Position numbers and translations under genes: made by a program. 64,000 bases of DNA from assembly GCA_964593365.1 (NCBI GenBank), contig CAZQGQ010000001.1, positions 50,153 to 114,152 on the forward strand. The letters run 5' to 3'. The notes under the pieces were generated by a model, which was not told where the DNA came from, did not search any database, and saw only the letters and a list, made by a program, of their open reading frames with translations. Positions 6,359 through 44,050 of this stretch are shown here, piece by piece (position 1 is the first letter of the stretch; each line of letters starts with the position of its first letter). Source of the DNA: an uncultured Candidatus Saccharibacteria bacterium. Lineage in GTDB: Bacteria; Patescibacteriota; Minisyncoccia; Phycocordibacterales; Phycocordibacteraceae.

Positions 6359-6431
6359 GCTCCTGTGGTGAAACGGATATCATTACTGTCTTCGGAACAG
6401 TCGTTCCAGGTTCGAGTCCTGGCGGGAGCAC
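6359..6431 (+). tRNA. tRNA-Arg (anticodon TCG)
   Basis: Manual cloverleaf fold. Acceptor GCTCCTG/CGGGAGC, D-arm with GG, anticodon stem ACTGT/ACAGT with loop CTTCGGA, T-arm CCAGG-TTCGAGT-CCTGG, discriminator A. No full CCA encoded. Confidence 0.8.
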
Positions 6432-6476
6432 AAGCGAATTGAAGAAACGAAAAGAGTGTGCGACCATAGAGTTCGC

Positions 6477-6550
6477 GCGGATATGGTTTAGTGGTAAAAC
6501 GGGTCCTTGCCAAGGACCAGTCGGGAGTTCGATTCTCCCTATCCGCACCA
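6477..6550 (+). tRNA. tRNA-Gly (anticodon GCC), 3' CCA encoded
   Basis: Acceptor GCGGATA/TATCCGC, anticodon stem GGTCC/GGACC with loop TTGCCAA, T-loop GTTCGATTC. Ends ACCA. Confidence 0.85.
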
Positions 6551-6556
6551 GTCAGG

Positions 6557-6584
6557 AAAGCGGCCCCATAAGGGCCGTTTTTCC
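6557..6584 (+). terminator. Rho-independent terminator after tRNA-Gly
   Basis: AAAGCGGCCC-cataa-GGGCCGTTTTTCC hairpin followed by a T-run. Confidence 0.6.
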
Positions 6585-6741
6585 GTTCATTAGGACCTGT
6601 GTATAAAGGTGTTGGCAGTGGGGATAAAAGACAAAAGTCACTCTCGGTCAATTTCCGTTAGTCCGAGAAATACCCATATAACAGGCCGTACTCTTCAAGG
6701 TCGGAGCACTCATTTGTTTTTCACGAAAAGACACTCTCAAT

Positions 6742-6815
6742 TGGTCGGGCCGCCGAGAATCGAACTCGGTCTCTCTGCTCCCAAAGCAGATGTACTACCG
6801 GTATACTACGGCCCG
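6742..6815 (-). tRNA. tRNA-Pro (anticodon TGG)
   Basis: Reverse complement CGGGCCG-TA-GTAT...TCTGC-TTTGGGA-GCAGA...CCGAG-TTCGATT-CTCGG-CGGCCCG-A-CCA. Full cloverleaf; CCA present. Confidence 0.8.
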
Positions 6816-6845
6816 CTTCAGGGCATCCTAGCACAAACTTTCGCT

Positions 6846-8054
6846 TTATTCCGCCTCTGCAATCGCTTCTTCGAGGATATCGAGAAGATCTGATGCGCGG
6901 CCGCGGAAGTTCGCGACGAGTGTTGGTGTGTTTCCCTTGAGATAGGCATCAAGGTCGCTGTTCATGTCAGCGCGGAAGCTGCGGCGCACATGATCCATGG
7001 TGAGTGCCTGCAGTTCGCGAAGGGAAAGATCCGGTTTCACGCTTCGGGTCGAGATAAGTCCGATAAGGCGTCGGTTCTCGTTTATGACAGCGCCTCCGGA
7101 GGATCCTTCCTGGGCTGCAGGGCCCGCCTTGACCGAGAAGATATCGGTGCGGTTCCCGCCGAAGGTATATACGTCGTTTACGGGGGCGAAGCTTATTGTC
7201 GGATAGAGGGATGAGCGTACCTGGGAGCTCGTCAGGAACTCAGCGGCATAGGAGCCAATGCCTACCTGGTCTCCTATCTCTATATCTGTCGCCGAGGAGG
7301 CAAGCGGGATATGGATGAAAGAAGAGGGAACAGAAGACCCTGTCAGGCTTCCGGTGACCGCCACGAAAGCAAAGTCATCCTGGCCGGTGCCGGTGGGACG
7401 AGTCGAAAGGAAAGTACCGGGGTTGTCCTTTATCCAGTCAGAGGAGATGTAGATAAGTTCGGCAGTGTAGGCATTTTTGGCTGGGCTTCCGGTCCGGATA
7501 TAGCAGTGGCCGGCATTCTCTTGCGGGTAGTCGGTCAGAAGGAAGCCTTGCGCGACGTGTGCGACGGTCATGATGATTCCTTTTGAGTCCACCACCACTC
7601 CAGAGCCCGAGCTTCCGCGAAGGCCTCCTCCTTGGACGCAGATGATATTTACGACCGCACCCTTAAGAAGAGCTTCAGTCGTGAGCTTTACATCAACGTT
7701 GGGGACAACCGGCGCTACGGGCGCTGTTGGCGTTACCGGCGCGACTATTTGCGGGGGAGTAGGAACCGGGAGCGGGGTGAAGGGAACCGTCGGGGTTGTC
7801 GTTGGAACCGGCTTAGGTGTTTGGGGAACTGCGGGAGTGACCGTTGCAGTTGAGCTTGCAGCTTCGGCAAGCTCATCGATCAGTATTTCAAACGGGGAGG
7901 GTCCTGGGTCTATCGCTGGAACCACTTCCGCCACTTCTACCGGCGGAATCTCGATCTCAGGAGGAGGTCCTGAGAACTGGTGGTACTGGGTAACCACGGT
8001 CGCCCAGAAGGTAAGGGCGCCCGCGGCTACGATTGAGACGATGTGCTGGAGCAT
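6846..8054 (-). CDS. Membrane-anchored trypsin-like serine protease with a Pro/Thr-rich linker
   Basis: 402 aa. N-terminal TM helix, a long PTPV-rich linker, catalytic-type motifs TVAHVA and AQEGSSGGAV (GxSGG). Confidence 0.7.
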   Translation of the reverse strand: MLQHIVSIVAAGALTFWATVVTQYHQFSGPPPEIEIPPVEVAEVVPAIDPGPSPFEILIDELAEAASSTATVTPAVPQTPKPVPTTTPTVPFTPLPVPTPPQIVAPVTPTAPVAPVVPNVDVKLTTEALLKGAVVNIICVQGGGLRGSSGSGVVVDSKGIIMTVAHVAQGFLLTDYPQENAGHCYIRTGSPAKNAYTAELIYISSDWIKDNPGTFLSTRPTGTGQDDFAFVAVTGSLTGSSVPSSFIHIPLASSATDIEIGDQVGIGSYAAEFLTSSQVRSSLYPTISFAPVNDVYTFGGNRTDIFSVKAGPAAQEGSSGGAVINENRRLIGLISTRSVKPDLSLRELQALTMDHVRRSFRADMNSDLDAYLKGNTPTLVANFRGRASDLLDILEEAIAEAE

Positions 8055-8113
8055 TATTGGTATGCTACGCCAAAGCAGGCAAAAATACAGTGGTATGGTA
8101 TTCTCGCCCTATT

Positions 8114-8184
8114 GCGGGATTAGTTTAATGGTAGAACATCAGTTTTCCAAACTGAGAGCAGGAGTTCGATTCTCCTATCCCGCA
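8114..8184 (+). tRNA. tRNA-Gly (anticodon TCC)
   Basis: Acceptor GCGGGAT/ATCCCGC, anticodon stem TCAGT/ACTGA with loop TTTCCAA, T-arm AGGAG-TTCGATT-CTCCT, discriminator A. CCA not fully encoded (ACCC). Confidence 0.8.
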
Positions 8185-8267
8185 CCCACTAGTGCTAGTT
8201 CAAGAGACTGAGGTGCTTTGTAAGTAACCGGCTTCTCTGAGTTTATGAACGAAGCTATACTTGCTTC

Positions 8268-12248: not shown

Positions 12249-13664
12249 ATGCGTACTAACACTTTATACAGAAACGTAGCTGCCTTTGTAACGGCAGCCG
12301 CGCTTTCGCTCTCAGTATTTGCGATGATGCCGGCACTTCCGGCACGCGCCGCTGACTGCGGATTCACTCGCGACATGCAGGTAGGAACCTCAGGAGATGA
12401 TGTGAAGTGCCTTCAGATCTATCTGAACTCTACTGGTTTCTTGGTCGCAAGCACGGGAGTAGGATCTCCAGGACAGGAGACGACCCTCTTCGGAGGACTT
12501 ACCAAAGACGCAGTCATGCGTTGGCAGTCTGCAAACCAGGTAACGCCTGCAAGCGGCTACTTCGGAATGCTCTCGCGCGCAAAGTATGCGTCGATTGCTT
12601 CTGGCGGAACCACGCCTCCTCCGTCAACTCCATCAACAGATGAGACCCGGGCACGCATCGCTCTTCTTGAAGCGGTGTCTGCATACCAGGACGCAGTTGA
12701 TGAGGATGACAACGCAAGCGAGGATGTCGGCGACACCCTCTTGGATGCATTCGTAGCATTCCTTGACCGCGACTACTCAGAAGCGATCAGCCTTGCACAG
12801 GATGCTGAATCTGACGCGAAGGACATCACTGACAACTCAGATGATGACGACAACGATGATGACGACAACAATGGCGATGAACAGGATGCTGAAGACGCCA
12901 TCGAAGACGCTGAGAACGCCATCGAAGACGCTCAGGAGGACATCGACGACTCTACCCAGTCAAACGGCGACATCAGTGACGCTGAGGAGCTCCTCGAGGA
13001 TGCGGAAGCAGCCCTTGATGACGCTAACGAAGCCCTTGATGACGAAGAGTTTGATGAGGCAATCGAGCAGGCCGAAGAAGCACAGGACCTTGCTGAAGAG
13101 GCAAGCGACATTGCAAACGGCAACGAGGACGATGATGACGACAGCTCTGACGAGGAAGACGCCCAGGATGCAATCGACAATGCTGACGAAGCTATTGACG
13201 ATGCGCAGCAGGCGATCGACGACTCAGATGAATCTATCGGCACCAAGGAAGAAGCTCAGGACCTTGTTGACGAAGCAGAAGACAAGCTCGACGTCGCTCA
13301 GGAAGAGTTTGACGACGAGAAGTACGATTCCGCAATGGACCGCGCTGACGAAGCTCTCGAGCTCGCAGAAGAAGCGCAGGATATTGCAGAAGGAGGAAGT
13401 GGCAGTAACGATGACGCCGACGAGGGCGACGCAGAAGACGCTCTCGACGATGCTGAGAACGCCATCGATGATGCATGGGAAGCAGTCGACGACTCTGATG
13501 CGTCAAACGACGACATCGAGGAAGCCGAGGACCTTCTCGAGGAAGCAGAAGATGTTCTCGCCGAGGCAGAAGATGCCTACGACGACGAGAACTATGATGA
13601 CGCAGTTGAGCTAGCCGAGGAAGCTGAAGACCTTGCCGACGAGGCAATGAACTTGGTCGACTAA
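12249..13664 (+). CDS. Secreted peptidoglycan-binding-domain protein with a long poly-acidic (Asp/Glu) repeat region
   Basis: Signal peptide MRTNTLYRNVAAFVTAAALSLSVFAMMPALPARA. PG_binding_1-like segment DMQVGTSGDDVKCLQIYLNSTGF...TLFGGLTKDAVMRWQ. Then about 300 aa that are over 40% D/E, with roughly three ~70 aa repeats (EEFDDE.YD.A...AEEAQDLAEEA.DIA.G..DDDD). Confidence 0.7.
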   Translation: MRTNTLYRNVAAFVTAAALSLSVFAMMPALPARAADCGFTRDMQVGTSGDDVKCLQIYLNSTGFLVASTGVGSPGQETTLFGGLTKDAVMRWQSANQVTPASGYFGMLSRAKYASIASGGTTPPPSTPSTDETRARIALLEAVSAYQDAVDEDDNASEDVGDTLLDAFVAFLDRDYSEAISLAQDAESDAKDITDNSDDDDNDDDDNNGDEQDAEDAIEDAENAIEDAQEDIDDSTQSNGDISDAEELLEDAEAALDDANEALDDEEFDEAIEQAEEAQDLAEEASDIANGNEDDDDDSSDEEDAQDAIDNADEAIDDAQQAIDDSDESIGTKEEAQDLVDEAEDKLDVAQEEFDDEKYDSAMDRADEALELAEEAQDIAEGGSGSNDDADEGDAEDALDDAENAIDDAWEAVDDSDASNDDIEEAEDLLEEAEDVLAEAEDAYDDENYDDAVELAEEAEDLADEAMNLVD

Positions 13665-13752: not shown

Positions 13753-14898
13753 ATGGAACCGCTCGCAGCACGCCTACGCCCCAAGACTATCGCAGAGGTA
13801 GTAGGGCAAGAACACCTGGTCGCTGAAGGGAAGCCGCTTCGCGTTGCTATCGAGAAGAAGCACCGCTTCTCGTTTCTTCTGTGGGGCCCTCCGGGAACCG
13901 GGAAGACGACGATCGCCCGCATCTACGCCAAAGCCCTTGACGCGGAGCTGTATGAGCTTTCAGCGGTGTCTGCAGGCAAGGACGACATCCGCCGGATCGT
14001 CGACGGAGGCGCTTCTTCCGGAAAGCTTCCGTTCGGGAAGCCGAAGGTGCTCTTTCTTGATGAAATCCACCGCTTCAACAAAAGCCAACAGGATTTCCTC
14101 CTTCCGTTTGTTGAAAGCGGAGAGCTGACCTTGATCGGGGCGACGACCGAGAATCCTTCCTTCGAAGTTATTCCCGCGCTCCTTTCTCGTTGCCGCGTGT
14201 TCGTGCTCGAGCCCTTGTCTGAAGAGGCTTTGAAGAAGATCGTGAAGCGCTCGAAGCTCAAGGTAGGCAAAGAAGCGTTCGATTGGCTCTTGGGCTACGC
14301 AAACGGAGACGCTAGACGTGCGCTTACTATGCTCGAAGGAGCAGAGTCCTTGTATGGGGAAGTGACGCCAGCCACCTTAGCGAGCGCGCTTGAGTCCCCG
14401 CATCTTCGCTACGACAAGAAGGGAGACGAGCACTACGACACCATAAGCGCGTTCATTAAGAGCATGCGGGCTTCGCAGCCTGATGCGGCCGTCTATTATC
14501 TTGCGCGCATGGTGGAGGCAGGAGAGGATCCTCTCTTCATCGCCCGACGAATGGTCATCTTCGCTTCAGAGGACATTGGTCTTGCTCAGCCGACGGCGCT
14601 TGTCGTTGCTAATGCCGTGTTTCGCGCCTGCGAGACGATCGGCTACCCTGAGTGCGCCATCAACCTCGCGCACGGAGTTGCCTACCTTGCTAACTGCAAG
14701 AAAGAAAAGAGCGCGTACGAAGCGCTTCGCGAAGCGCAAGCAGACATAGCGAAATTCGGGAATCTTCCGGTTCCTATGAACATCCGTAACGCTCCAACCA
14801 AGCTCATGAAAGAGCTCGGGCACGGCAAAGGCTACAAGCGCTATGACACGGAGAGCTATATGCCCGAGAAGCTGAAGAACAAGAAGTATTTCAAATAA
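13753..14898 (+). CDS. rarA: Replication-associated recombination protein A (AAA+ ATPase, MgsA/RarA)
   Basis: 381 aa. [15 protein letters not shown], Walker [26 protein letters not shown]. Confidence 0.85.
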
Positions 14899-14943: not shown

Positions 14944-16059
14944 TTAGTTTTTAATTGTGATTGGAAGGCCGTCGATCACTTGTTTCAGAACGTATGGCTT
15001 CGTGAATGCCCGCTTGCCGTCTGAGGTGAGTGTGCCGGAAGCGCCGGTATAGACCTCTATCTTTGCAAGATAGTCCTTAACGACTTCGGGATCTTCGGAA
15101 CCGGTCTCTTCCATTGCTTCTGCGATCATCATGATTGCGTCGTAGGCTGAGTCAGCACCAATCTCAACATCGCGGTTGTACGCTGCTTGGTACTTTGCTT
15201 CAAAGTCAGACGTGGGCGTGAGAGAGGTTGGGAAGATCATTCCGTTACAGCTGTCACCGCATTGCGTAATGATGCCCTTGTCGACGGTAATGTTGAAGAG
15301 TGGGAGCGTTGATCCGAACTCCTTAAGCTGGCGAGCAGTCACAACCGTAAGGCCAGTCCCGTCGGTCGTCATAACAACCGCGTCGACTGACTTGTCGATA
15401 AGCACCTTCTGGATCTCTGTACGTTCGTCAGAGGTTCCGAGAATTGGCTCGTAGATATGTGCGACCGTTCCTCCAAGCTGTTCGAAGCGCTTCTTGAACG
15501 CAGCTGTCTGGAGCGTCACCCATACGTCATTTGCTCCAAAGAGCGCAACCTTTCGATGTCCTCGCTCATACACGATGTCTGCGAGGTCAGCAGAAAGGAT
15601 CTCGTCATGCTGCCAGGTGTTGAAGAGGTACTCGCTGCTTTCGTTGAACGCAGGAGCGCCAAGAGAAGGAGAGATCACGACCACCTTAGCGGCCGCAGCA
15701 ACGGGAGCGACAGCAAGGCCGGTATTCGACCAGTTAAGGCCGACGATGAACTTGGCCCCGTCAGCAGTAGTGAGCTTCTTGAAGGCACTGATGGACTTCT
15801 GAGAGTCCCCCGCATCGTCCTCATAGATGCCGCGGAGCTGCTTTCCGTTAACTCCTCCGCGCGCGTTCACTTCTTTAATGGCAAGCTCCATGCCGTTTCG
15901 AGACGCTTCGCCCCAGGTGGCTCCTTCGCCTGAAAGGATCATGATGCCGCCAATGGGGATAGAGCCTTCATTAGAGGTGTTGCCTTTCGTTACTCCTACT
16001 CCAACAAGCACGATGAGCACCAGGAGAACAATGGCACCAAGGATAAATTTCTTGTTCAT
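14944..16059 (-). CDS. ABC transporter substrate-binding protein, PBP type 1 (LivJ/branched-chain amino acid family), membrane-anchored. Cassette 1 SBP.
   Basis: 371 aa. N-terminal TM anchor, then IPIGGIMILSGEGATWGE...GGVNGKQL...DD, the Peripla_BP_6 signature. Confidence 0.8.
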   Translation of the reverse strand: MNKKFILGAIVLLVLIVLVGVGVTKGNTSNEGSIPIGGIMILSGEGATWGEASRNGMELAIKEVNARGGVNGKQLRGIYEDDAGDSQKSISAFKKLTTADGAKFIVGLNWSNTGLAVAPVAAAAKVVVISPSLGAPAFNESSEYLFNTWQHDEILSADLADIVYERGHRKVALFGANDVWVTLQTAAFKKRFEQLGGTVAHIYEPILGTSDERTEIQKVLIDKSVDAVVMTTDGTGLTVVTARQLKEFGSTLPLFNITVDKGIITQCGDSCNGMIFPTSLTPTSDFEAKYQAAYNRDVEIGADSAYDAIMMIAEAMEETGSEDPEVVKDYLAKIEVYTGASGTLTSDGKRAFTKPYVLKQVIDGLPITIKN

Positions 16060-16143
16060 GGATAGTTGCTAGGTAAATAATTCTTATAAGTCATAACTTG
16101 ACTCTGGGGGGAATTATTGTGTAGTGCCTACCTATGGTCAATA

Positions 16144-16181
16144 TTTGTCGAACATATGTTGACAAAAGGTTGACAACATAT
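16144..16181. promoter_or_regulatory. Putative operator: inverted and direct repeats of TTGTCGA/TTGACAA around a CATATG core
   Basis: TTTGTCGAACATATGTTGACAAAAGGTTGACAACATAT sits between divergent SBP and regulator genes, 13 nt upstream of the regulator ATG. Confidence 0.4.
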
Positions 16182-16193
16182 AGACTTATACGT

Positions 16194-16958
16194 ATGAAAG
16201 ATTCCTTGCTTAGCTCTCTGGGTCTTTCTCCAAGCGAGATCCGGATCTACAACAGCATCATTAAAATAGGACCTTCAACGCCTCCTGTGTTTGGCAAAAG
16301 CGCAGGTATCAAACGAACAACGGCCTACAGTCTCGCGCGAGGGCTCGTTGAAAAAGGGCTTCTAAGCGAGGACGCAACGAAGCGCCCCCGACTCTTTAGC
16401 GTAGCGAGCCCTGCGGAGGTGCTTGCTCTTACACGCGCAGACAAAAAACGAGTTGCGGAACGCGAAGAGCTGTTGAAGGGCCTTGCAAAGGAACTTTCTA
16501 CGATCGCAGCGAGTCCTTCGTATGAGGTACCGACGGTCCGTTTTATTGAGGAGACAAAGATTATGGATTTCCTACGCCAACAGGCATTCGTATGGGACAA
16601 GAATATTCTCGAAAGCAAAGAAACGACGTGGTGGGGATTCCAAGACCACACCTTTGTGGAGCACTACGGGGAGTGGATCAGTTGGTATTGGGACAAGTGG
16701 CAAGAAGGAATAGACCTTAAGCTGTTAAGCAACCGGGCTCCTGTCGAAGTTAAGTTTGGTCCTAAGTACGCGTCTCGCAGGCATATAAAATTCTGGGGGG
16801 AAGCAGTGAACTTTCTTTCAACCACCTGGGCTATCGGGGATTACGTGGTGATGATCAATACCCGTACACGCCCGTTTTATCTCGTGGAGATACACTCAAA
16901 GCTTTTGGCGCACGACCAGCGCGAAGTCTTCCGAAACCTCTGGCCTCTGGTCCCATAA
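16194..16958 (+). CDS. Transcriptional regulator with N-terminal winged HTH (TrmB/MarR-like). Cassette 1 regulator.
   Basis: I prefer the ATG at 16194 (MKDSLLSSLGLSPSEIRIYNSIIKIG...TTAYSLARGLVEKGLL), which aligns with the N-termini of the seven paralogs. The track ORF starts at 16134. Confidence 0.7.
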   Translation: MKDSLLSSLGLSPSEIRIYNSIIKIGPSTPPVFGKSAGIKRTTAYSLARGLVEKGLLSEDATKRPRLFSVASPAEVLALTRADKKRVAEREELLKGLAKELSTIAASPSYEVPTVRFIEETKIMDFLRQQAFVWDKNILESKETTWWGFQDHTFVEHYGEWISWYWDKWQEGIDLKLLSNRAPVEVKFGPKYASRRHIKFWGEAVNFLSTTWAIGDYVVMINTRTRPFYLVEIHSKLLAHDQREVFRNLWPLVP

Positions 16959-17004: not shown

Positions 17005-17277
17005 TTACTTAACTGCGTCCTTGAGTGCCTTTGCTGCGCGGAACTTAGGTGTGCGAGTTGCAGCAATGCGGATGGTCTCTCCAGTGCGAGGGTTTCGTCC
17101 AGTTCGAGCTGGGCGAGCCTTTGCAACGAAGATCCCAAGACCTGCGACTGAAACCTCATCGCCTGACTTCAAGCCGGTGATGATCGAGTCAATAAAGGTC
17201 TCAACAGCGCGTTCTGCGTCCGCCTTCGTGCTGCCGAGAACATCCTGAACTTTGGATACGATGTCTGCTTTGTTCAT
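17005..17277 (-). CDS. hup: DNA-binding protein HU
   Basis: 90 aa. MNKADIVSKV...GLGIFVAKARPARTGRNPRTGETIRIAATRTPKFRAAKALKDAV. Confidence 0.9.
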   Translation of the reverse strand: MNKADIVSKVQDVLGSTKADAERAVETFIDSIITGLKSGDEVSVAGLGIFVAKARPARTGRNPRTGETIRIAATRTPKFRAAKALKDAVK

Positions 17278-29312: not shown

Positions 29313-30743
29313 ATGAAACGTCTCCCACCGCGCGGCTACCTCATGATCCTGGCACTCGTGTTTGGCGCAGTGTTCATGACCGTGTTTGGCGGCCTCTCGC
29401 TCTTCGTTCTCTCTGAGAACAGGCTCCAGACGCAGACTGAGGAATCGACCGAAGCGTTCTCGCTCGCAGAAGCCGGCTTAGAGTACTACCGCTGGTTCTT
29501 GTCTCACTACCCTAATGACATGCGAAACGGAACAGGGCAGCCCGGTCCGTATGTGGTCTCGTACTCTGATCCGCAAGCAGGGCTCGCAGGGACCGCGACG
29601 CTCACGATCAATGGCAACCTTGCCTGCGGGCAGCTCACTTCAGTTGATATACAGTCGACGGGGACTCCGGCAGACGCGCCAGGCGTTACACGCACGCTTC
29701 GCGCGCGCTACGCTCGGCCATCAGTTGGCACATACTCCTACATCTTGAATGACTCGGTATGGGCTGGAGCTGACCGCGTGATCTTAGGTCCGTATCACTC
29801 AAACGGGGGTGTGCGCATGGACGGCACTGCAAACTCTTCAGTGACAAGTTCTCTTTCCTCTTGGAACTGCAATAGCGATTACGGCTGCTCTCCTACTCAG
29901 GCGAATGCGCACGGCGTCGTTGGGAACGGGCCAAATCAAGATTTGTGGGACTATCCGGTTCCGCAGGTGAACTTCGGCGGCATCAGTGCTGACTTTGGCA
30001 CGCTAAAGACGCTCGCTAATGCAAGCGGAATCTATTTGCCGCGCTTCAGTTCAGGAACGAATACCACTAACGAGCAGTACTGGCGCGGGTATCGGCTCGT
30101 GTTTAACGCAAACGGGACCGTAACTATTTATCGCGTTGATGATCTGACCAGCCAGACGGTAACGCCCATTAATACACAGTCTGGCACTGTCGACTGGGCG
30201 CTCATCGCTGACGATGACTCGTACCAGACACGCACTATTTCTGCGACCTGTGGCCTTATCTTCGTCGAAGACAACGTATGGGTGGAGGGCACGATTCCCT
30301 CGAAGGTGACTCTGGTTGCGGCTAACATCGTGAACGCAAACATTGCGCCTAACGCCTATCTTTCAAACAACATCCGTTATGGGGCGACCGATGGTACGGA
30401 CGGCTTCACGCTCATCGCAGAAAACAACATCCTCATCGTCCCTAACTCCCCGACCAACATGACGTTGAACGGCATCTTCATCGCGCAGGGCGGAGCGTTT
30501 GGCAGAAACTATTACGGCATGCCAGGCACGTATGAGCCCAAAGGAACGCTCACGATCCTCGGGACGACCGTTTCAAACAGACGCACGGGAACTAAGTGGT
30601 GCTTGAATTCCCCGACCTGTACCTCAAATGCAGGCTATCAGTCGCGCATCGATTCCTATGACCGACGTATCGCAAGTGATCCGCCGCCGTTTACGCCGGT
30701 AGTTTCAACCGATTACCAGTTCGTGGATTGGAAGGAGGAATAG
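29313..30743 (+). CDS. PilX-like minor pilin / pilus-associated protein
   Basis: N-terminus MKRLPPRGYLMILALVFGAVFMTVFGGLSLFVLSENRLQ resembles a PilX_N domain. 476 aa, Thr/Asn/Gly-rich. Confidence 0.5.
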   Translation: MKRLPPRGYLMILALVFGAVFMTVFGGLSLFVLSENRLQTQTEESTEAFSLAEAGLEYYRWFLSHYPNDMRNGTGQPGPYVVSYSDPQAGLAGTATLTINGNLACGQLTSVDIQSTGTPADAPGVTRTLRARYARPSVGTYSYILNDSVWAGADRVILGPYHSNGGVRMDGTANSSVTSSLSSWNCNSDYGCSPTQANAHGVVGNGPNQDLWDYPVPQVNFGGISADFGTLKTLANASGIYLPRFSSGTNTTNEQYWRGYRLVFNANGTVTIYRVDDLTSQTVTPINTQSGTVDWALIADDDSYQTRTISATCGLIFVEDNVWVEGTIPSKVTLVAANIVNANIAPNAYLSNNIRYGATDGTDGFTLIAENNILIVPNSPTNMTLNGIFIAQGGAFGRNYYGMPGTYEPKGTLTILGTTVSNRRTGTKWCLNSPTCTSNAGYQSRIDSYDRRIASDPPPFTPVVSTDYQFVDWKEE

Positions 30744-30748
30744 CAACT

Positions 30749-31276
30749 TTATGAAGCAGCCGTTTTTTGTGTCGGTAGAACAAAGATTGCATATACACAA
30801 ACCAACGCAGAGAGGATTTGTAATCCTGCGAATATGTATTGATCGTGGAAGAAAGAAGCGTAAGAGGTTGCGACGTGTGCAATGGTAAATAGTAGCCAAC
30901 CGTACGTCTTGTGCGTTGTGCTAAGCAAGTAGCCACCCCAAATAAAAGAAAGGGACGAAATTGCTTCGATGAACGTGAGATATCCAGTAAAGAAGAAGTA
31001 GCAGAGCAAAACTGTGAGTGCGCTCATTACAAGATTGATATGTAGCATTCTTTCTTTCGATGGATTCACGTGGCGAACATAGCCATAGAGCATAACGATG
31101 AAGAAGCCTAATTCAGCAATGGCCAAGATCTTCAGGTCAATTGCCCAAAAGTAAAAACCACTAAGCAACCCAATTGCCATTCCAGATGCCCATCCAGATT
31201 TTTTCCCAAGGAACAAGAGAACCTTGTTTACTACGCTTAAGAGTCCTAGGAATATGGATACGGCGAGCAATATCAT
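30749..31276 (-). CDS. Integral membrane protein (6 TM helices; possibly a PnuC-like transporter)
   Basis: 175 aa, entirely hydrophobic helices. The family assignment is tentative. Confidence 0.45.
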   Translation of the reverse strand: MILLAVSIFLGLLSVVNKVLLFLGKKSGWASGMAIGLLSGFYFWAIDLKILAIAELGFFIVMLYGYVRHVNPSKERMLHINLVMSALTVLLCYFFFTGYLTFIEAISSLSFIWGGYLLSTTHKTYGWLLFTIAHVATSYASFFHDQYIFAGLQILSALVCVYAIFVLPTQKTAAS

Positions 31277-31294
31277 ATACGCAATCTTACAACA

Positions 31295-32113
31295 CTATGG
31301 ATAGGTTAGTTTTCCCTCTCCTTTGTTTTCCGGAAGTGTACTGTCGATATAACGGAAGAGAGCCTTAATTGTCTCTGCGATTTTCTTGTCAGTTACAATC
31401 ATCGCCCACGGATGGTCTTCAGCGAACGAAATAATAAGAGCTTTATCGTCGTAAGCTGCGAGCTCGATATCAAAATCGAATTCTTTTGGCAAGAATTTAG
31501 TTACACGCAATTGCTGGTCATCAAATTTAGTCATCTCGCGTGACTTAGGACTATCAACTGCAAGTGCGAGCCATTTTATCCCTGCGGCAGGGCGTTTCTT
31601 TAAAATGTAATCAATCCAGTCCATCCCCATGAGGTTGTAGATTGCGTGGATACCAGTGAAACCATAAACAACTTTTTCTTTGTTGTCGTGTACCAGATCT
31701 TCGTACGCTTGTTTGATACCCTCAGCACCGTCAAAGAATTCAAAGTGAGGTCGATAACGTTCTTCTGTATTCCGGAGACGAGCAATCTCAGGTACTACTT
31801 CTGAGACGCGCTTGATGTTTCGGAGAAGTCGTTCTTGCGCACGTTCAAGATAGTCAACCAAAAGGTGTGGTTGTATAGATTGAAAAAGGAGCACTCCGCG
31901 TTCTTCGGAAGAAGTCACGAGACCTTTCTCAATAAGTGACTTTAAGATTCCGTAAAGCGTTGTGCGGTTGAAGTGAGTACGTTTTGCGATGTCGGTTGCA
32001 CGGAGGCCGGAACTTTGTCTTAAAAGAAACACAAAAACTTTAATCTCAGTATCGGAAAGCCCGCTATCCTTCAGGGTCTCAACAAGTGTCTGATCAATTT
32101 TCTCTCGAGTCAT
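31295..32113 (-). CDS. TrmB/MarR-like wHTH transcriptional regulator. Cassette 2 regulator.
   Basis: N-terminus LKDSGLSDTEIKVFVFLLRQSSGLRATDIAKRTHFNRTTLYGILKSLIEKGLV. C-terminal domain with the FFDGAEGIKQAYEDLV motif shared with paralogs. Confidence 0.7.
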   Translation of the reverse strand: MTREKIDQTLVETLKDSGLSDTEIKVFVFLLRQSSGLRATDIAKRTHFNRTTLYGILKSLIEKGLVTSSEERGVLLFQSIQPHLLVDYLERAQERLLRNIKRVSEVVPEIARLRNTEERYRPHFEFFDGAEGIKQAYEDLVHDNKEKVVYGFTGIHAIYNLMGMDWIDYILKKRPAAGIKWLALAVDSPKSREMTKFDDQQLRVTKFLPKEFDFDIELAAYDDKALIISFAEDHPWAMIVTDKKIAETIKALFRYIDSTLPENKGEGKLTYP

Positions 32114-32120
32114 AATAACT

Positions 32121-32143
32121 GTTGTCGGAATTTATCAACAATA
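32121..32143. promoter_or_regulatory. Putative operator half-sites (TTGTCGGAA ... ATCAACAA), with a second TTTTGTCGGATAAT at 32207-32220
   Basis: Repeated TTGTCGGA in the divergent intergenic region. TATAAT at about 32201-32206 lies just upstream of the SBP start. Confidence 0.35.
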
Positions 32144-32220
32144 ATACCCTTCTGCTTGACAAAGAACAAGTAGGGAACATACTTTCGTCCAAGTGCGCAT
32201 TTATAATTTTGTCGGATAAT

Positions 32221-33348
32221 ATGAACAAAAATTGGCTGATCTCGGCAGTTGTACTTGTTGTTGTGATTATCGGCGGTTGGCTTCTGTTAAAAGAAGGTAA
32301 CCAGGGCACATCAGAAACGGGCCCAATTAAGATTGGTGTTTCGGTTCCGCTTACGGGCGAAGCGGCGAGTTATGGAGAGGCTGGACGTGCTGGTCTGATG
32401 TTGGCTTTAAAAGAAATAAATGATGCTGGCGGTATTGATGGGCGTTCCGTTGAACTAATTATTGAAGACGATAAATGTAGTTCTGCGAGCGTTAGTGCAT
32501 ATCAGAAACTTATCAACGTAGACAAGGTGGTCGCCATTATTGGGCCAGTGTGTTCTCCGGCTGCAGGACCAGCTAACCCTATCGCACGTGAGGCAGGGGT
32601 TCCAAGTATTATGATTGGCGCTTCGGCTCCGGGTCTTGCTGGAGGGGACGACTCTGTTTTCAGCGGATATGCGTCAGACGCTCTTCAGGGACAGTTCGTT
32701 GCAGAGTACGTATACAACACTCTCGAGAAAAGAAACGTTGCTGTCATGTATGAAAACAACGACTGGGGCAAGGGCATCCAGGAAGTCTTCACTAAGCGCT
32801 TCAAGGAACTCGGTGGCACCATCGTGTTTATCGAAGGGGCAGCTCAAGGTTCAAAGGACGTTAAGTCTATTCTCGCGAAAGTTAAAGCAGCCAATCCAGA
32901 CATGATCTACATGCCTGCGTTCCCTGCACTTGCTACGATCGCTATGAAGCAGATGAAAGAGCTTGAAATTACCGCCCCTGTGATCGGTGGTGATGCCTTT
33001 GAATCTGAAGAATTCTTGACTTCGGGTTTTGCTGACGGTGTCATGTATATCACTGGCGCCGTGGGTAACCCGGATGACTTCCAGGCAAAGGTTAAGGCGG
33101 TATCAGGAGACGACGCGATTATAAACATCGTCACCCCTCTTGGTTACGATGCGCTTAAAATACTCGCGAAGGTTATCGACGAGCGCGGAAGTACAAAGCC
33201 AGAAAGCATAATTGCAGGCCTAAAAGCACTCAGCTACACGGAAGGAATTTCATTTCCAATGATTAGCTTTGATGCTAATGGCGATCTTAGGGAAGCAGCA
33301 TACGATGTGAAAATCGTTCGTGGGACTGAATCCGAAATCGTTAAATAA
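32221..33348 (+). CDS. PBP1/LivJ-family ABC substrate-binding protein, membrane-anchored. Cassette 2 SBP.
   Basis: I prefer the ATG at 32221 (MNKNWLISAVVLVVVIIGGWLLL...IKIGVSVPLTGEAASYGEAG...GGIDGRSVELIIEDDKC). The track ORF starts at 32122. Confidence 0.8.
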   Translation: MNKNWLISAVVLVVVIIGGWLLLKEGNQGTSETGPIKIGVSVPLTGEAASYGEAGRAGLMLALKEINDAGGIDGRSVELIIEDDKCSSASVSAYQKLINVDKVVAIIGPVCSPAAGPANPIAREAGVPSIMIGASAPGLAGGDDSVFSGYASDALQGQFVAEYVYNTLEKRNVAVMYENNDWGKGIQEVFTKRFKELGGTIVFIEGAAQGSKDVKSILAKVKAANPDMIYMPAFPALATIAMKQMKELEITAPVIGGDAFESEEFLTSGFADGVMYITGAVGNPDDFQAKVKAVSGDDAIINIVTPLGYDALKILAKVIDERGSTKPESIIAGLKALSYTEGISFPMISFDANGDLREAAYDVKIVRGTESEIVK

Positions 33349-33361
33349 AAGGAGAAATAGC

Positions 33362-33397
33362 AAAACCGGCCGCTACTGTGCGGCCGGTTTTGCTTTG
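33362..33397. terminator. Bidirectional terminator between SBP2 and regulator 3
   Basis: AAAACCGGCCGC-actgt-GCGGCCGGTTTTGCTTTG. Confidence 0.65.
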
Positions 33398-34206
33398 TAG
33401 TTTTCGGTCCCAAGTTCTTGGGCTCCCTTCCATGCAAGATCAAAGATGATTCGCATCATACGATGCAAGGACTTGTCTTCGATGATAAACCCCGAAGGGT
33501 GGCGAGGATTAAGATTTGTAATAAGCATCTTGCTGTCGCCATAGATAATAATCTCTCCCTCAAGCGGAAAATCTTTTGGCGGGAGATAACGTACTTTAGG
33601 TTTAAAACGTGAAGGAACATCCGAATGCACATCTTCAACAACTACCCGCGATTCTTCCGTTGCGGGAAGTATCCCACGAACCGTTATTCCTATCTCAACC
33701 TTACGTTTGCGAAATTTCCGATAGTATTTCTCATCAAGAAATTCGAGAATGTTTGCTGAGTTAGCGATACTAAGTAATTCGTAAGGCTTATCACCTGCGA
33801 CTAAATCGTCGTAAACCGATAGTACCCCCTCTGCTCCTTCAAAATATAGCAACCGCGGTTTATTAGTGTGGTCGGCAAAGTATCCTTGGAGTTCAGGTAA
33901 CAGACTCTGTACTTGCTCCACCGCATCATTTGCGTTTGCCGCATTTCGCTCTGCAAGACGGAGAAGTTTTTTAGGGTTATCAATCTGATAATAAATCTTC
34001 TTTCCGCGTTCAATCTCGTTTACGAGCCCTTTTACACTTAGGTCTGTAAGGATCTTGTAGACCGTACTTCGATTAACACGTGTCTCAGTAGCTATATCAG
34101 AGGGATATGCCCCTCCCATCTCTAGAAGGTAGGAATAAATTATTGACGCTTTCTGTGAAAGCCCGGTTTCCTGGAGGTTGGCTACAATCCGTTTAGCAAG
34201 TTCCAT
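33373..34206 (-). CDS. TrmB/MarR-like wHTH regulator. Cassette 3 regulator.
   Basis: LQETGLSQKASIIYSYLLEMGGAYPSDIATETRVNRSTVYKILTDLSVKGLV; YFEGAEGVLSVYDDLV. Confidence 0.7.
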   Translation of the reverse strand: MELAKRIVANLQETGLSQKASIIYSYLLEMGGAYPSDIATETRVNRSTVYKILTDLSVKGLVNEIERGKKIYYQIDNPKKLLRLAERNAANANDAVEQVQSLLPELQGYFADHTNKPRLLYFEGAEGVLSVYDDLVAGDKPYELLSIANSANILEFLDEKYYRKFRKRKVEIGITVRGILPATEESRVVVEDVHSDVPSRFKPKVRYLPPKDFPLEGEIIIYGDSKMLITNLNPRHPSGFIIEDKSLHRMMRIIFDLAWKGAQELGTENYKAKPAAQ

Positions 34207-34324
34207 AACGTTTAGAGAAGTGTATCATTATTTGTCACTTCATACGAACAAAATTAATATCAAGCTTAAAAGAGAGCCTACATTAAGCATATTTGTGTTA
34301 TTTGAAGGTAGCAAACGCGTACAC

Positions 34325-34347
34325 CATTTGACACATATGTGTAAATG
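34325..34347. promoter_or_regulatory. Imperfect palindrome CATTTGACACATATGTGTAAATG immediately upstream of the SBP3 start codon (putative operator)
   Basis: Symmetric about CATATG and 8 nt upstream of the ATG at 34356. A second TTTGTCAC...GAACAAA element lies at 34229-34254. Confidence 0.4.
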
Positions 34348-34355
34348 TCCGGTAT

Positions 34356-35456
34356 ATGAAAACAAACACACTGCTTGTTATAGGGGTCTTGATTGTCGTG
34401 GTTGTGGGCGGCTGGTTCGTTCTTAACGAAAAGGATGGATCAGAACAATCTGAAACCGTTAAAATCGGCCTTATTCTTCCTCTAACCGGGGATCTTGCTC
34501 ACTTCGGAGAGGCGGGACAACGGGCTGCCTCTCTCGCTATTGAGGAAATCAATGCAAACACAGGATTCAGCTATAACTATGAACTTGTAATCGAAGATGA
34601 CTCATTCGATGCAAGAAAAACAGCAAGTGCACTCAATAAGCTAATCAGTGTTGATAGAGTAGATGCGGTTGTCAGTGTTGGTTCCGGCCCAGGCAACGTG
34701 GTAGCCCCCATTGTTGAGAAGAATAAAATCCCCCATATTGGTCTTGCGTCTGATCCTGTTGTTTCGGATGGGGAATACAACTTCATCCATTGGACTCGAC
34801 CTCAAGAAGAAGTAGACACCATGCTTACTGAACTTAAGGAGCGTGGTCTAACCCAGGTTGCAGTTATGGGTGTCAATCACCAAGGCTTTCAAGCGATAAC
34901 AGATGACTTCAAGGCAAAGGCGTCTAAAGCTGGAATTACGATAGTAAGCGATCAACTCTTTAACACGGGTGAGACTGACTTTAAAACAGTCATCGTAAAC
35001 TCACAGCGCACCAACCCAGACGTCTATCTTCTTGGAGCGTTTAGTCCTGAAGTCGAAATCCTCGCAAAGCAAATGAAAGAGCTTGGCATAACCAAACCAC
35101 TAACCTCAATTGAATCGTTTGGACTTAGTGCAACACCAGAAGTGTTTGAAGGGCACTGGTTTATTGATTCCGCCGTTGTCACTGGGGGATTCAGCGATAA
35201 GTATCGTGCAAAATACAATGCCGCCGTCGGTCCTACTGCTGCCAACATCTATGACGCGCTTAATCTAATAGTGCTCGCTACGGAGGAAGCAGGTAAAGAT
35301 AATCGCCCAACCGGGACTGACATTGCTGTTGCTCTTGGAAAAGTAAAAGGATATTCAGGCGCATTTGGTCCTCTTTCTGTTAGTCCAGAGGGACAGTTCA
35401 TCTCACAGCCTTCAGTAAAGATAATTAGCAACGGGAAACCGACGGAGGTTGAGTAA
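34356..35456 (+). CDS. PBP1/LivJ-family substrate-binding protein, membrane-anchored. Cassette 3 SBP.
   Basis: MKTNTLLVIGVLIVVVVGGWFVL...VKIGLILPLTGDLAHFGEAG. Confidence 0.8.
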   Translation: MKTNTLLVIGVLIVVVVGGWFVLNEKDGSEQSETVKIGLILPLTGDLAHFGEAGQRAASLAIEEINANTGFSYNYELVIEDDSFDARKTASALNKLISVDRVDAVVSVGSGPGNVVAPIVEKNKIPHIGLASDPVVSDGEYNFIHWTRPQEEVDTMLTELKERGLTQVAVMGVNHQGFQAITDDFKAKASKAGITIVSDQLFNTGETDFKTVIVNSQRTNPDVYLLGAFSPEVEILAKQMKELGITKPLTSIESFGLSATPEVFEGHWFIDSAVVTGGFSDKYRAKYNAAVGPTAANIYDALNLIVLATEEAGKDNRPTGTDIAVALGKVKGYSGAFGPLSVSPEGQFISQPSVKIISNGKPTEVE

Positions 35457-35468
35457 AAGTGAATTCCG

Positions 35469-35503
35469 AAACCGCCCGCATATGCGGGCGGTTTTCTTAT
35501 TTA
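35469..35503. terminator. Bidirectional terminator
   Basis: AAACCGCCCGC-atat-GCGGGCGGTTTTCTTATTT. Confidence 0.65.
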
Positions 35504-36255
35504 GAGACACTCTTTTTTTCCGAAGGAAGTGTTTCCCAAATCACCTTGAACCATGTTCGGAAACTGTCAGCGATGTTTTGGTTCACAATGACCGTATAGG
35601 TTGCAGATTCATCTATTACGCCCGGTTCGATATTGGAGAAGATAATAATGCGGTCTTTGAGAATCTCAACGGCAGAGTTAGTTGATCGAGAAGATGGGAA
35701 GAACTTATTGTCAGACATATCGAGTACGGAGGGAACTGCGGCTCTGGCCTCGTGGTCGAAGATGGCGTAGAAAGTTATGTTCTTCCGTCGAACTTCTTTT
35801 ACAAATTGATCATAGAAGGACGCAATTCGTTTATCTCCCCATGCGCCCTTGGCTCCAAGGGTGTGGACGTCTTCACCTGCGCGCAAAATCTCGCGCATGT
35901 AATTCTTCCAACCTTCAAGTCCGCGATACACATATGTCGCATCTGTTTTGTTTATCACACGGTACTTTGCCTCAAGGTCAGGCATGATCTTCTCAAGAGC
36001 AGTCTCCTTCTCTTTGATGAGCTCCATCAGTTTCTTGGGATCAACCGCCTGGTAACGGTTCTCACCCGTCTGAAGTATTTCAAAAACCACACCCTTCTCT
36101 ATAAGGCGATTCAGAGAGTCATAAACGTTTCTGCGGTTTACCCCTGAATGGACCGCAATCTTACTTACCGACATCTCTCCTTCAGAGAGAAGGGATTCGT
36201 AGATTCGTGCCTCGTTTTTGGAGAAGTTGAGCTGGGTGAGAACGTCAGTAAACAT
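35497..36255 (-). CDS. TrmB/MarR-like wHTH regulator. Cassette 4 regulator.
   Basis: I prefer the ATG at 36255 (MFTDVLTQLNFSKNEARIYESLLSEGEMSVSKIAVHSGVNRRNVYDSLNRLIEKGVV). It aligns with the paralog at 45272. YVYRGLEGWKNYMREIL motif. Confidence 0.7.
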   Translation of the reverse strand: MFTDVLTQLNFSKNEARIYESLLSEGEMSVSKIAVHSGVNRRNVYDSLNRLIEKGVVFEILQTGENRYQAVDPKKLMELIKEKETALEKIMPDLEAKYRVINKTDATYVYRGLEGWKNYMREILRAGEDVHTLGAKGAWGDKRIASFYDQFVKEVRRKNITFYAIFDHEARAAVPSVLDMSDNKFFPSSRSTNSAVEILKDRIIIFSNIEPGVIDESATYTVIVNQNIADSFRTWFKVIWETLPSEKKSVSK

Positions 36256-36356
36256 TGAGGTGTAGATTATCACCATATGGCCATATATGCCACTCATGAG
36301 TAATAACTTACGCTTCCCCGGCATTGGCAGTTACTAAACCCCTGCCAGTAAAACGT

Positions 36357-37436
36357 ATGAAAACAAAGGTTATTTTCGGTTTGCTGGCGATTGTGGCAGT
36401 CGCCCTGCTTATCGGCACGTCAGACAAGGAAGCTGATTCTGAGTCAGAAATCAAGATTGGAGTGGTAACTCCTCTCACCGGAGGGGCTGCCTATTGGGGA
36501 GAATCTTCTCTCGTTGGAATCAGGCTCGCAGAGCAGGAACTCCAAGAGAAAGGGATTCCGGTCCGGGTGATTGTTGAAGATGGGGAGCTTGATCCGAAGC
36601 TTGCCCTAAGCGGTGCACAGAAGCTCGTGAATATAGATGGCATTGATGCCATGTATACCGAGTTCAATCCGGCCGTCATCGCAGTAAGCTCGTTCCTTCA
36701 AGATAAAGATCTTATCCAGATCTGCAACGCGACTCCGGTTTCCCCACTTGCTCTAAGCGAAAACTTCTTCAAAACGTACTTAGATTACGAAGAAAGCTGC
36801 GAGCAAGTGGCGAACGTCCTGCAAGGTCGTGGCCACACGAAAGTTGGGGTTCTGAAAATGAACCTCGAACACGGAGACCTGTGCTTGAAAGGAATACGAA
36901 ACGTGTTTGGCGATAACGTTGTGGTCGAAAACTACAACACTGGAATAGTTGACTTCCGGACCCCTCTTGCAAAGCTTGAAGCCTCCGGAGTCCAGGTCAT
37001 CTTCCACGCTGCGTTTCAGGCCGAGACGTTGGCATCGCTACGAAATATGCGCGAGCTTGGGATGTCGCAGCCGTTCGTCGGCCTTGCTGAGACCATGACT
37101 CCTGGTGTCGCTGAGGAGTTCGAAGACGTGCTAGAGGGGGCTGTAGTCTTTGGGCTTCCGACAGTGTCTCCTGACCTACTTGCAAGACTGAATACGGTTG
37201 CGGTCGATGAGAAGCTTGTAGACCAAAATGCGGCTGCTCTCGCGTATCTTCATATCACGCAACTTGGCGAGGCTCTTAGCGAGTGTAAAAAAGAGACAGC
37301 CTGTGTACGAGAGAAGTTGAAACAGTCCCCCGCGAATGCAGGCGTAGGATTCCAGGGTTTTACGGATCGCATTGCCGGGTTCGATACGCTCATCCAGGAA
37401 TGGAAAGATGGGCAATTTGTCCCCGTTTCTGAATAG
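36357..37436 (+). CDS. PBP1/LivJ-family substrate-binding protein. Cassette 4 SBP.
   Basis: I prefer the ATG at 36357 (MKTKVIFGLLAIVAVALLIG...IKIGVVTPLTGGAAYWGE). Confidence 0.8.
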   Translation: MKTKVIFGLLAIVAVALLIGTSDKEADSESEIKIGVVTPLTGGAAYWGESSLVGIRLAEQELQEKGIPVRVIVEDGELDPKLALSGAQKLVNIDGIDAMYTEFNPAVIAVSSFLQDKDLIQICNATPVSPLALSENFFKTYLDYEESCEQVANVLQGRGHTKVGVLKMNLEHGDLCLKGIRNVFGDNVVVENYNTGIVDFRTPLAKLEASGVQVIFHAAFQAETLASLRNMRELGMSQPFVGLAETMTPGVAEEFEDVLEGAVVFGLPTVSPDLLARLNTVAVDEKLVDQNAAALAYLHITQLGEALSECKKETACVREKLKQSPANAGVGFQGFTDRIAGFDTLIQEWKDGQFVPVSE

Positions 37437-37452
37437 GTCGCTACCAACGTTT

Positions 37453-37484
37453 ACCGCCCGTCTATACGGGCGGTTTTCGTTTAT
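37453..37484 (+). terminator. Rho-independent terminator between SBP4 and livH
   Basis: ACCGCCCGT-ctata-CGGGCGGTTTTCGTTTAT. Confidence 0.6.
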
Positions 37485-37496
37485 ACTAGGGAAAAC

Positions 37497-38372: not shown

Positions 38373-38375
38373 TTT

Positions 38376-40105: not shown

Positions 40106-40206
40106 AGGGAGTAAACGTTTCGTTTAGAATAGTATAATAGTTGATTAACTGTTTACTTTTGTCAACTACATCGTAGAGTGCTGCCGTACCAAATAACGGC
40201 ACACAT

Positions 40207-41301: not shown

Positions 41302-41305
41302 AAGA

Positions 41306-44049: not shown

Positions 44050-44050
44050 G

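Follow-up and report, generated by a model that had tools for sequence, protein, structure and literature searches.

The leucine-isoleucine-valine system LIV-I of Escherichia coli, a hydrophobic amino acid transporter (HAAT), combines two permeases of the BPD_transp_2 family and two ATPases (one with a BCA_ABC_TP_C tail) with more than one substrate-binding protein (SBP), and the sharing of one translocator by several SBPs is established both there, where LivJ and LivK use LivHMGF, and for HisJ and ArgT, which likewise share one translocator. In this article, I will discuss a bacterial locus where an importer of this kind is surrounded by relatives of the archaeal regulators TrmB and TrmBL2. 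It lies in a stretch of 64,000 nucleotides (hereafter the window) from contig CAZQGQ010000001.1 of an uncultured Candidatus Saccharibacteria bacterium (assembly GCA_964593365.1, positions 50,153 to 114,152), and the element in question is the divergent gene pair S0/R0 at 14944-16958, an SBP gene back to back with a regulator gene, together with the seven further pairs of the same layout. In the archaeal family (PF01978; structures 3QPH and 5BPD) an N-terminal winged helix with a tyrosine in its recognition helix is followed by a long dimerisation helix and a first effector subdomain resembling phospholipase D (PLD), and the TrmB gene of Thermococcus and Pyrococcus adjoins the gene for an ABC-transporter binding protein. 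The recognition-helix residue Tyr50 of TrmB contacts DNA, six of its seven sugar-contacting residues lie in a subdomain that is absent from TrmBL2, and TrmBL2 (264 amino acids) is without the ~70 C-terminal residues that hold the TrmB sugar-binding site (PMC4158304).

The window holds eight divergent SBP/regulator pairs and one LivHMGF set, as tabulated with Pfam and hidden Markov models, and every SBP in it (8/8) is divergently paired with a TrmB-like regulator (Table 1). Six pairs form the main array at 31.3-46.8 kb, with livH, livM and the two ABC ATPase genes interleaved, and the remaining two are satellites, S0/R0 between rarA and hup, and R7/S7 between a gene of the metallo-beta-lactamase (MBL) fold and an SGNH hydrolase gene that is followed by rpsL. 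An earlier note on this DNA had claimed both satellites with these families and flanks, and a ratio of eight pairs to one permease/ATPase set; all of this holds, the satellite proteins do belong to the families of the array, so that the refutation named in the note itself fails, and the count is correct with seven regulators recognised by the Pfam TrmB model and the eighth, R4, by profile comparison and predicted fold. The same note went on to interpret the cassette as a mobile or duplicating genomic module, and here I arrive at a different reading, to which I would give a probability of about 0.68: one shared importer, eight SBPs with their own regulators, two satellites of different origin and no self-copying element.

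Table 1. Features of the window that are discussed here (positions counted from its first nucleotide).
Feature	Position	Strand	Evidence or remark
rarA	13753-14898		flank of pair 0
S0, LivJ/HAAT-type SBP, 371 amino acids, N-terminal hydrophobic anchor or signal	14944-16059	-	Peripla_BP_6, E 6.9e-53
S0/R0 shared control region	16060-16193		back-to-back promoter-like sites
R0, TrmBL2-type regulator, 254 amino acids (winged helix-turn-helix, long helix, PLD-like domain)	16194-16958	+	PF01978, E 7.1e-08
hup	17005-17277		flank of pair 0; Bac_DNA_binding match
R1, array pair 1	31295-32113	-	Pfam
S1, array pair 1	32224-33348	+	Pfam
R2, array pair 2	33373-34206	-	Pfam
S2, array pair 2	34356-35456	+	Pfam
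R3, array pair 3	35497-36255	-	Pfam
S3, array pair 3	36357-37436	+	Pfam
livH	37497-38372	+	BPD_transp_2, E 1.7e-41
livM	38376-39242	+	BPD_transp_2, E 3.7e-46
R4, array pair 4	39239-40105	-	remote TrmB homologue (profile comparison, predicted fold)
S4, array pair 4	40207-41301	+	Pfam
R5, array pair 5	41306-42082	-	Pfam
S5, array pair 5	42162-43298	+	Pfam
livG, ABC ATPase with BCA_ABC_TP_C tail	43270-44049	+	Pfam
S6, array pair 6	44051-45160	-	Pfam
R6, array pair 6	45272-46018	+	Pfam
livF-type ATPase, same direction as R6, then tpiA and pgk	46031-46774	+	ABC_tran, E 6.5e-33
MBL-fold gene	56154-56798		flank of pair 7
hyp127, 127-amino-acid Cys-rich secreted-looking protein	56801-57184		between MBL-fold gene and R7
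R7, TrmB-like regulator, 251 amino acids	57187-57942	-	PF01978, E 2.4e-08
R7/S7 shared control region	57943-58046		conserved block in three orthologous intergenic regions
S7, LivJ/HAAT-type SBP, 378 amino acids	58047-59183	+	Peripla_BP_6, E 1.4e-46
SGNH hydrolase, then rpsL	59244-59963		flank of pair 7

The two BPD_transp_2 proteins and two ABC ATPases, present once each in the window, identify an importer of the LivHMGF type, as in E. coli LIV-I. Unlike LIV-I, it is accompanied by eight SBPs (24-47% identity) with their own local regulators, its genes are interleaved with the pairs, two of the SBPs lie 14-20 kb from livHM, and the SBPs appear to be membrane-anchored or secreted in a monoderm-like organism. 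The operon structure is unusual for a LIV system, with livHM following S3, livG following S5 with a 29-nt overlap, and livF following R6 and running into tpiA and pgk. The gene starts in pairs 1-3 were corrected by alignment to paralogues, and the R0 start at 16194 matches the public gene call and more than 100 homologues of 250-256 amino acids. The window belongs to a contig of about 650 kb that was recovered in separate assemblies of several metagenomes (JGI 3300015360 and 3300020186, and Logan runs). Base composition changes along the window, with GC at 0.45-0.49 in the stretches 30000-46000 and 56000-60000 and at about 0.53-0.56 elsewhere.

All eight SBPs match Peripla_BP_6 over nearly the full profile (E 1.6e-31 to 3e-62), and in every translation a hydrophobic segment is seen at the N-terminus and a lipobox cysteine is lacking. 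By sequence, S0 and S7 match LivJ, LivK and HAAT SBPs in the PDB, the best matches being HAAT or Leu-Ile-Val binding proteins for S0 and LivJ (1Z15) for S7; scores against the NCBIfam LivJ subfamily are 72-103 bits, far under its cut-off of 477. The low identity of the SBPs to one another makes different specificities likely.

Of the regulators, R0, R1, R2, R3, R5, R6 and R7 score above the PF01978 gathering score (32.6-61.5 bits vs a cut-off of 25.6), the eight proteins are 248-288 amino acids long, none of the eight matches PF11495, the sugar-binding region (N305-E326 in P. furiosus TrmB was the reference for this subdomain), and the NCBIfam equivalog models for TrmB and TrmBL1 give 19-37 bits against cut-offs of 500-650. 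The AlphaFold model of R0 (pLDDT, the predicted local distance difference test, 90) consists of a winged helix, a long helix (73-106) and an alpha/beta domain (114-252); its best Foldseek matches in the PDB are eight chains of TrmBL2 (5BPD and related entries) over the full length, with E down to 2.6e-11, and its C-terminal domain matches the PLD-fold nucleases NucT and Zucchini. Judged by the modelled fold, the regulators are of a short TrmBL2-like architecture and are not sugar-sensing TrmB proteins. An arginine and a tyrosine in the recognition helix (R41 and Y45 in R0) are invariant in the seven Pfam-recognised regulators, and when R4 is added to the alignment the tyrosine is still invariant and the arginine is not; Tyr45 of R0 plausibly matches Tyr50 of TrmB, an equivalence read from the motif and not from an alignment to TrmB. 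The alignment of the seven contains no conserved stretch of 7-10 residues.

R4 itself matched nothing in Pfam or NCBIfam, and the profile of the seven other regulators compared with R4 alone gave an hhalign probability of 0.3%; a match appeared only with the profile of the R4 family (632 representative clusters of ~280-amino-acid proteins), which aligns with the TrmB-like profile over 186 columns at a probability of 92% (E 6e-7). The AlphaFold model of R4 (pLDDT 92) has full-length TrmB (3QPH) as its best PDB match and a C-terminal domain like PLD-fold NucT, and by profile comparison and predicted structure together R4 is a remote TrmB homologue. The family as a whole is invisible to the Pfam TrmB model and to NCBIfam, and in another genome (L044; L numbers denote related loci outside the window) an R4-type gene is again divergently paired with an SBP gene.

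If TrmBL2 is the closest structure and the sugar-binding subdomain is absent as it is from TrmBL2 (PMC4158304), these proteins could, as in Thermococcales, bind DNA in the manner of nucleoid or chromatin proteins and act without gene specificity. I regard this as highly improbable, since TrmBL2 is a single-copy chromatin protein and the window encodes eight paralogues, 20-47% identical and each beside an SBP gene, a one-to-one genomic pairing that a chromatin protein would not need; moreover, orthologous pairs are conserved and the motifs in the control regions are specific to each orthogroup. So many paralogues paired with SBPs argue against functional equivalence to TrmBL2. The window proteins also differ from TrmB, being bacterial, ~250 amino acids long, devoid of the PF11495 region and the sugar-binding beta-sandwich subdomain, and paired with amino-acid-type (HAAT) and not sugar SBPs. 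Searches of the available library of papers for TrmB in candidate phyla radiation or Patescibacteria found none, nor was anything relevant found there on LIV transporters of Parcubacteria; what is new relative to known systems is a bacterial TrmBL2-type regulator paired one-to-one with HAAT SBPs.

The suggestion that satellites are copies which left the array of a mobile or actively duplicating cassette has points in its favour. As with integron cassettes or transposon passengers, a two-gene unit is repeated (the divergent layout occurs eight times in the window), stands in several places and varies in copy number between genomes; R7/S7 has different surroundings from genome to genome, and relatives lack it at the syntenic locus; and compared with the other genes, the array and pair 7 show an AT shift. 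Unlike such elements, the cassettes have no recombination sites, terminal repeats, integrase or transposase: the window-wide search for direct repeats and conserved boundaries, which had been proposed as a check, found no DNA repeats common to cassette borders or interiors beyond short coding-sequence matches, and Pfam scans of the genes flanking all pairs found no transposase or integrase beside any of them. High identity between copies, which would also mark a mobile module, is lacking, the SBPs being 24-33% identical to one another (except S1/S4 at 47%) and the regulators 20-33% (except R3/R6 at 47%), and at such distances the pairs are to be read as ancient paralogues and not as recent copies.

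The histories of the partners are also incongruent at depth. In the SBP tree (166 sequences) each window SBP, satellites included, groups with array SBPs of other genomes in an orthogroup of its own. S1 and S4 are the only window SBPs in a common supported clade (bootstrap 92), and R1 and R4 are extremely different; conversely, the regulators R3 and R6 are sisters (bootstrap 97), and the SBPs S3 and S6 are not. It follows that pairs have swapped partners in the distant past. Over shorter distances the regulator and SBP are co-inherited, with orthologues of pair 5 in L007 (76% regulator, 75% SBP) and also L010, of pair 6 in L009 (91% and 85%), of pair 3 in L037 (49% and 53%) and of pair 2 in L007 and L009; there are exceptions, such as R1, whose closest relative (78%, L009) is paired with a different SBP. 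Among 50 divergent pairs, regulator and SBP distances are correlated with a Mantel r of 0.66, reached by 0 of 2000 permutations, and with an r of 0.36 when deep comparisons alone are taken. With pairs that are ancient and partly reshuffled, the mobile-cassette explanation is rather improbable for the window as a whole, and for S0/R0, with the history described below, it is largely refuted. What stands of the original proposal is a heritable unit able to change place, as R7/S7 does; what falls away is any sign of mobility or recent duplication.

A scan with the LivH of the window returned 73 related loci, nearly all from Patescibacteria or CPR (Parcubacteria, Paceibacterota, Kaiserbacteria and some 'Saccharibacteria'), the closest LivH being 82% identical, and 43 livH-centred loci of at least 14 kb in other genomes served to survey copy number, a check that the earlier note had proposed. 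One SBP in a canonical sbp-livHMGF operon was found in 20 of the 43 loci and two to eleven SBPs in 22; a divergent regulator-SBP pair is present at least once in 13 loci, and in nine there are two to five such pairs; regulators are lacking altogether in seven loci, which have between three and eleven SBPs. The pairing of all eight window SBPs and the recurrence in 13 of 43 loci mean that the layout is not chance, and across these loci SBP multiplication is widespread in the group, with one regulator per SBP an elaboration of some lineages only. At L020, L026 and L076, a single livHMGF is surrounded by 8-11 SBP genes, and regulator genes are absent.

It might be argued that the extra SBPs, and the satellites above all, are stand-alone receptors or surface proteins that sense the host or environment or sequester ligands, and do not feed LivHMGF at all, given that S0 and S7 lie 14-20 kb from the permease genes, that each SBP has its own N-terminal anchor, and that the 3-11 SBPs per transporter in seven related loci exceed what is usual for shared translocators. 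This seems quite improbable to me, because all eight are full-length LivJ-type proteins, the orthologues of S0 and S7 reside inside liv operons or arrays of other genomes, translocator sharing is established for the proteins named at the outset, and no signalling partner genes are nearby.

The history of the satellite S0/R0 is where the copy interpretation fails most clearly. R0 belongs to an orthogroup of more than 469 homologues, the best 120 of which are 54-78% identical over the full length, and in six other genomes with R0 orthologues at 57-71% identity there is no SBP neighbour in any (6/6). The position of the gene is fixed all the same: rarA is near in five of the six, and hup, rny, clpP, ppa and nusA are on the other side wherever the contig reaches (at least three of these in both L080 and L085; L082 and L083 have hup, with or without rny). 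The gene divergently upstream of R0 encodes a different small protein in each of the six genomes, and the possibility that these neighbours form one conserved family was rejected, only one related pair (44% identity) being found among them. Out of the seven contexts inspected, the sister species L086 alone keeps the order clpP-rny-R0<->S0-rarA, with R0 79% and S0 70% identical. The next-closest relative of S0 (47%) is the first SBP in a liv array of L088 (reg< sbp> livH sbp sbp livM livF), where the divergent regulator is not R0-like, its best match being R3 at 27%, and S0, the L086 SBP and this array-head SBP cluster with a bootstrap of 100. GC at third codon positions (GC3) is 0.60 in S0 and 0.535 in R0, native-like and without an AT shift, and a terminator-like hairpin follows S0 at 14929-14900. 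Because the synteny of R0 is SBP-free and the relative of S0 stands beside an unrelated regulator, S0/R0 is better described as a recruited SBP than as a duplicate of some array cassette; the most economical account is that R0 was already in residence when, in the ancestor shared with the sister species, an SBP gene of the array type came to lie at its divergent promoter.

Does the adjacency of S0 and R0 then mean anything, or does R0 control only itself or other genes, such as the prephenate dehydratase (PDT) gene that follows it in relatives, while S0 is expressed independently? TrmB-like proteins are a common regulator type in these genomes, additional TrmB-like genes without a partner lie within 5 kb at several loci, the divergent neighbours of R0 orthologues are unrelated, and a PDT gene adjoins R0 in L080 and L083. 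Against this, the S0-ward promoter-like site lies inside the conserved control block of R0, the sister species retains the pair at the identities given above, and the S0-R0 spacing of 134 bp is in line with that of the other seven pairs, so that I consider an incidental adjacency unlikely. The PDT gene is an observation in its own right: it stands directly after or near the R0 orthologue in L080 (6775-7335), L083 (5125-5691) and L082 (9759-10316), and none was found in the window or at the sister locus L086, which have S0 instead. This neighbourhood may hint that R0 is related to aromatic amino acid supply.

Upstream of R0, a block of ~50 bp can be aligned in eight R0 orthologues, whatever the divergent gene (16136-16186 in the window, where it reads GGTCAA-N5-TGTCGAACA-N3-TGTTGACA-N6-TGACAACA), and the common pattern is GTCAA-N5-TGTCGnACA-N3-TGTTGACA-N6-yGACAACA, then TAnnnT, ~7 nt and the ATG. 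On the plus strand a promoter-like site for R0 (TTGACA-16-TAGACT, 16159-16186) ends ~7 nt before the ATG, and a site directed towards S0 lies on the minus strand (TTGACC-17-AATAAT, 16141-16113). The distance of ~7 nt is common to all eight orthologues, which therefore suggests that the R0 transcript is leaderless or near-leaderless. Since the divergent promoter is kept whichever gene it faces, the control region of R0 acts like a bidirectional unit of fixed form. In this it can be compared with divergent pairs of the LysR or MarR type, which have a short bidirectional region with repeats over both promoters, a layout that would fit autoregulation and control of the neighbour; unlike those pairs, it involves another regulator family, and the region is kept as the target changes between genomes. 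An obvious Shine-Dalgarno sequence is missing upstream of the start of all eight SBP genes.

Candidate operators can also be listed for other pairs. Five copies of the palindrome TGTYG-N9-13-CRACA are present in the window, where shuffled sequence would give 1.16, and three of the five are directly upstream of R0, R1 and R5; the R0 copy (TGTYG-N12-CRACA) starts at 16157, the R1 orthologues share TTGTTG-N9-10-CGACAAC, and the R5 orthologues share TCGTCGAyA…CGACAAC. For pair 7 the control regions of three orthologues share GTCAAT-N9-ATTGACrGyyTGACArT, the window copy of which reads TGTCTATAGGTTCTATTGACAGCTTGACAGT on the R7 strand, and a composite TTGAYA…GACAR pattern is at 57986-58000 on the regulator strand. 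The palindrome is more specific than either of two shorter words: YGACAAC is modestly enriched (27 vs 14.7), with the majority of copies in coding sequence, and TTGTCRA was rejected as an operator word, being found 17 times against 19.8 expected window-wide (8 of the 17 within ~0.8 kb of cassette control regions). Elsewhere in the array, near-identical terminator-like hairpins (ACCGCCCG…CGGGCGGTTTT) follow S2 (35471-35503) and S3 (37453-37485), and these are the sole non-coding repeat common to two cassettes.

The other satellite, R7/S7, had a different origin. R7 has 41 detectable homologues. On a 716-kb chromosome (L109) a divergent pair with R7 at 75% and S7 at 58% identity stands between pilin/prepilin-peptidase genes and a DEAD-box helicase gene, in L110 the pair (59% and 44%) is inside an array of at least five pairs, and in L111 a 49% R7 homologue is without an SBP; the clades of the window, L109 and L110 have bootstraps of 99 for S7 and 100 for R7. 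At the locus itself, a relative whose SGNH hydrolase is 70% identical (L112) has the order M50 peptidase, small gene, MBL, PNPOx gene, SGNH, rpsL and rpsG, and a sister genome (L113) has M50, small genes, an LCAT-like gene, SGNH, rpsL and rpsG; neither a regulator nor an SBP gene was found between MBL and SGNH in L112 or between M50 and SGNH in L113. No junction repeats were seen at the borders of pair 7. The GC3 of R7 (0.44) and S7 (0.425) is array-like (array 0.39-0.54) and about two standard deviations below that of the 49 other genes (0.586 ± 0.075). To judge by trees and neighbourhoods, R7/S7 is a true co-inherited unit that occupies different chromosomal places across genomes. The slot upstream of SGNH-rpsL-rpsG is variable, holding hyp127 with R7/S7 in the window (56801-59243), a PNPOx-like gene in L112 (5542-5979) and a gene for a 926-amino-acid LCAT-like protein in L113 (3171-5951); hyp127 was compared with the PNPOx gene of L112 and is not its counterpart. 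The genome of L076, one of the regulator-free loci with 8-11 SBPs, keeps the R7/S7-type pair of L109 ~90 kb away.

The picture that would unite these observations is one LivHMGF-type (HAAT) core served by eight anciently diverged, membrane-anchored LivJ-type SBPs, each encoded opposite its own TrmBL2-architecture regulator across a bidirectional control region of ~80-150 bp. Each regulator would bind TTGAC/TGTYG-type repeats overlapping the back-to-back promoters and from there control its own gene and the neighbouring SBP gene, all SBPs would dock to the single LivHM translocator, and the cell would thus choose, SBP by SBP, which substrate enters it. R7/S7 would be a co-inherited pair now lodged in the variable slot upstream of SGNH-rpsL, and R0 an old resident regulator whose divergent promoter slot was taken, in this lineage and its sister species only, by an SBP gene of an array-type clade, so that the divergent layout would have been assembled repeatedly and then kept.

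Several points weigh against this reading. That the regulators control their neighbours, that the SBPs all use LivHMGF and that ligands are sensed I infer from gene order and sequence. The count of a single importer covers the window, and a second permease set elsewhere in the genome is possible. The closest structure is that of TrmBL2, a chromatin protein that acts without specificity and has no known ligand, and the conserved TTGAC-type repeats overlap predicted -35 boxes and may be promoter elements and not operators. The contexts inspected were seven of the more than 469 orthologues for R0 and three of the 41 homologues for R7, and a loss of S0 in all other lineages instead of a gain here is a less parsimonious history. 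The SBP and regulator trees were built by neighbour joining from simple distances, with bootstraps below 50 at deep nodes, and the Mantel correlation comes partly from shared species history.

More speculatively, the arrangement could be a modular scavenging network where TrmBL2-type regulators each gate one SBP of the shared importer and the R0-type control region is a docking slot for lineage-specific cargo, an SBP here and unrelated small proteins elsewhere, with R0 perhaps responsive to aromatic amino acids and its target switched from synthesis to uptake; I offer this tentatively and hold it to be doubtful in its entirety. The wider interest is that Patescibacteria (CPR) have minimal genomes, rely on imported metabolites and are little known as to gene regulation, and that about a quarter of this 64 kb codes for eight SBPs and as many TrmB-like regulators that surround a single importer, in a layout that recurs in many relatives. 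This points to TrmBL2-architecture proteins as a main local regulator type in these bacteria and to uptake control per substrate, and it yields candidate operators and regulator-SBP pairs that are concrete enough for testing and ligand screening. For annotation, it is a reminder that look-alike regulator/SBP pairs can differ in origin, one being a relocated unit and another a capture by a resident regulator.

The remaining gene content (including RNase Y, ClpP, type IV pilus genes, tpiA and pgk) fits Patescibacteria, the group in which the related loci also place the window, as a Parcubacteria- or Paceibacterota-like genome. Just upstream of the array, at 30749-31276, a gene encodes a small membrane protein that weakly resembles PnuC/NMN transporters (E 1.2e-4, short of the gathering score) and is another possible scavenging transporter. 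The 471-amino-acid protein encoded at 12249-13664 combines a PG_binding_1 domain with a weak match to HEPN and an acidic Asp-rich stretch, and its gene contains three internal repeats of ~220 nt at a spacing of ~270 nt (12885-13647) that are 64-72% identical to the reference copy; relatives of this protein adjoin rarA in L080, L083 and L086. Furthermore, four tRNA genes (Arg-TCG, Gly-GCC, Pro-TGG and Gly-TCC) are arranged around a trypsin-like protease gene at 6359-8188.

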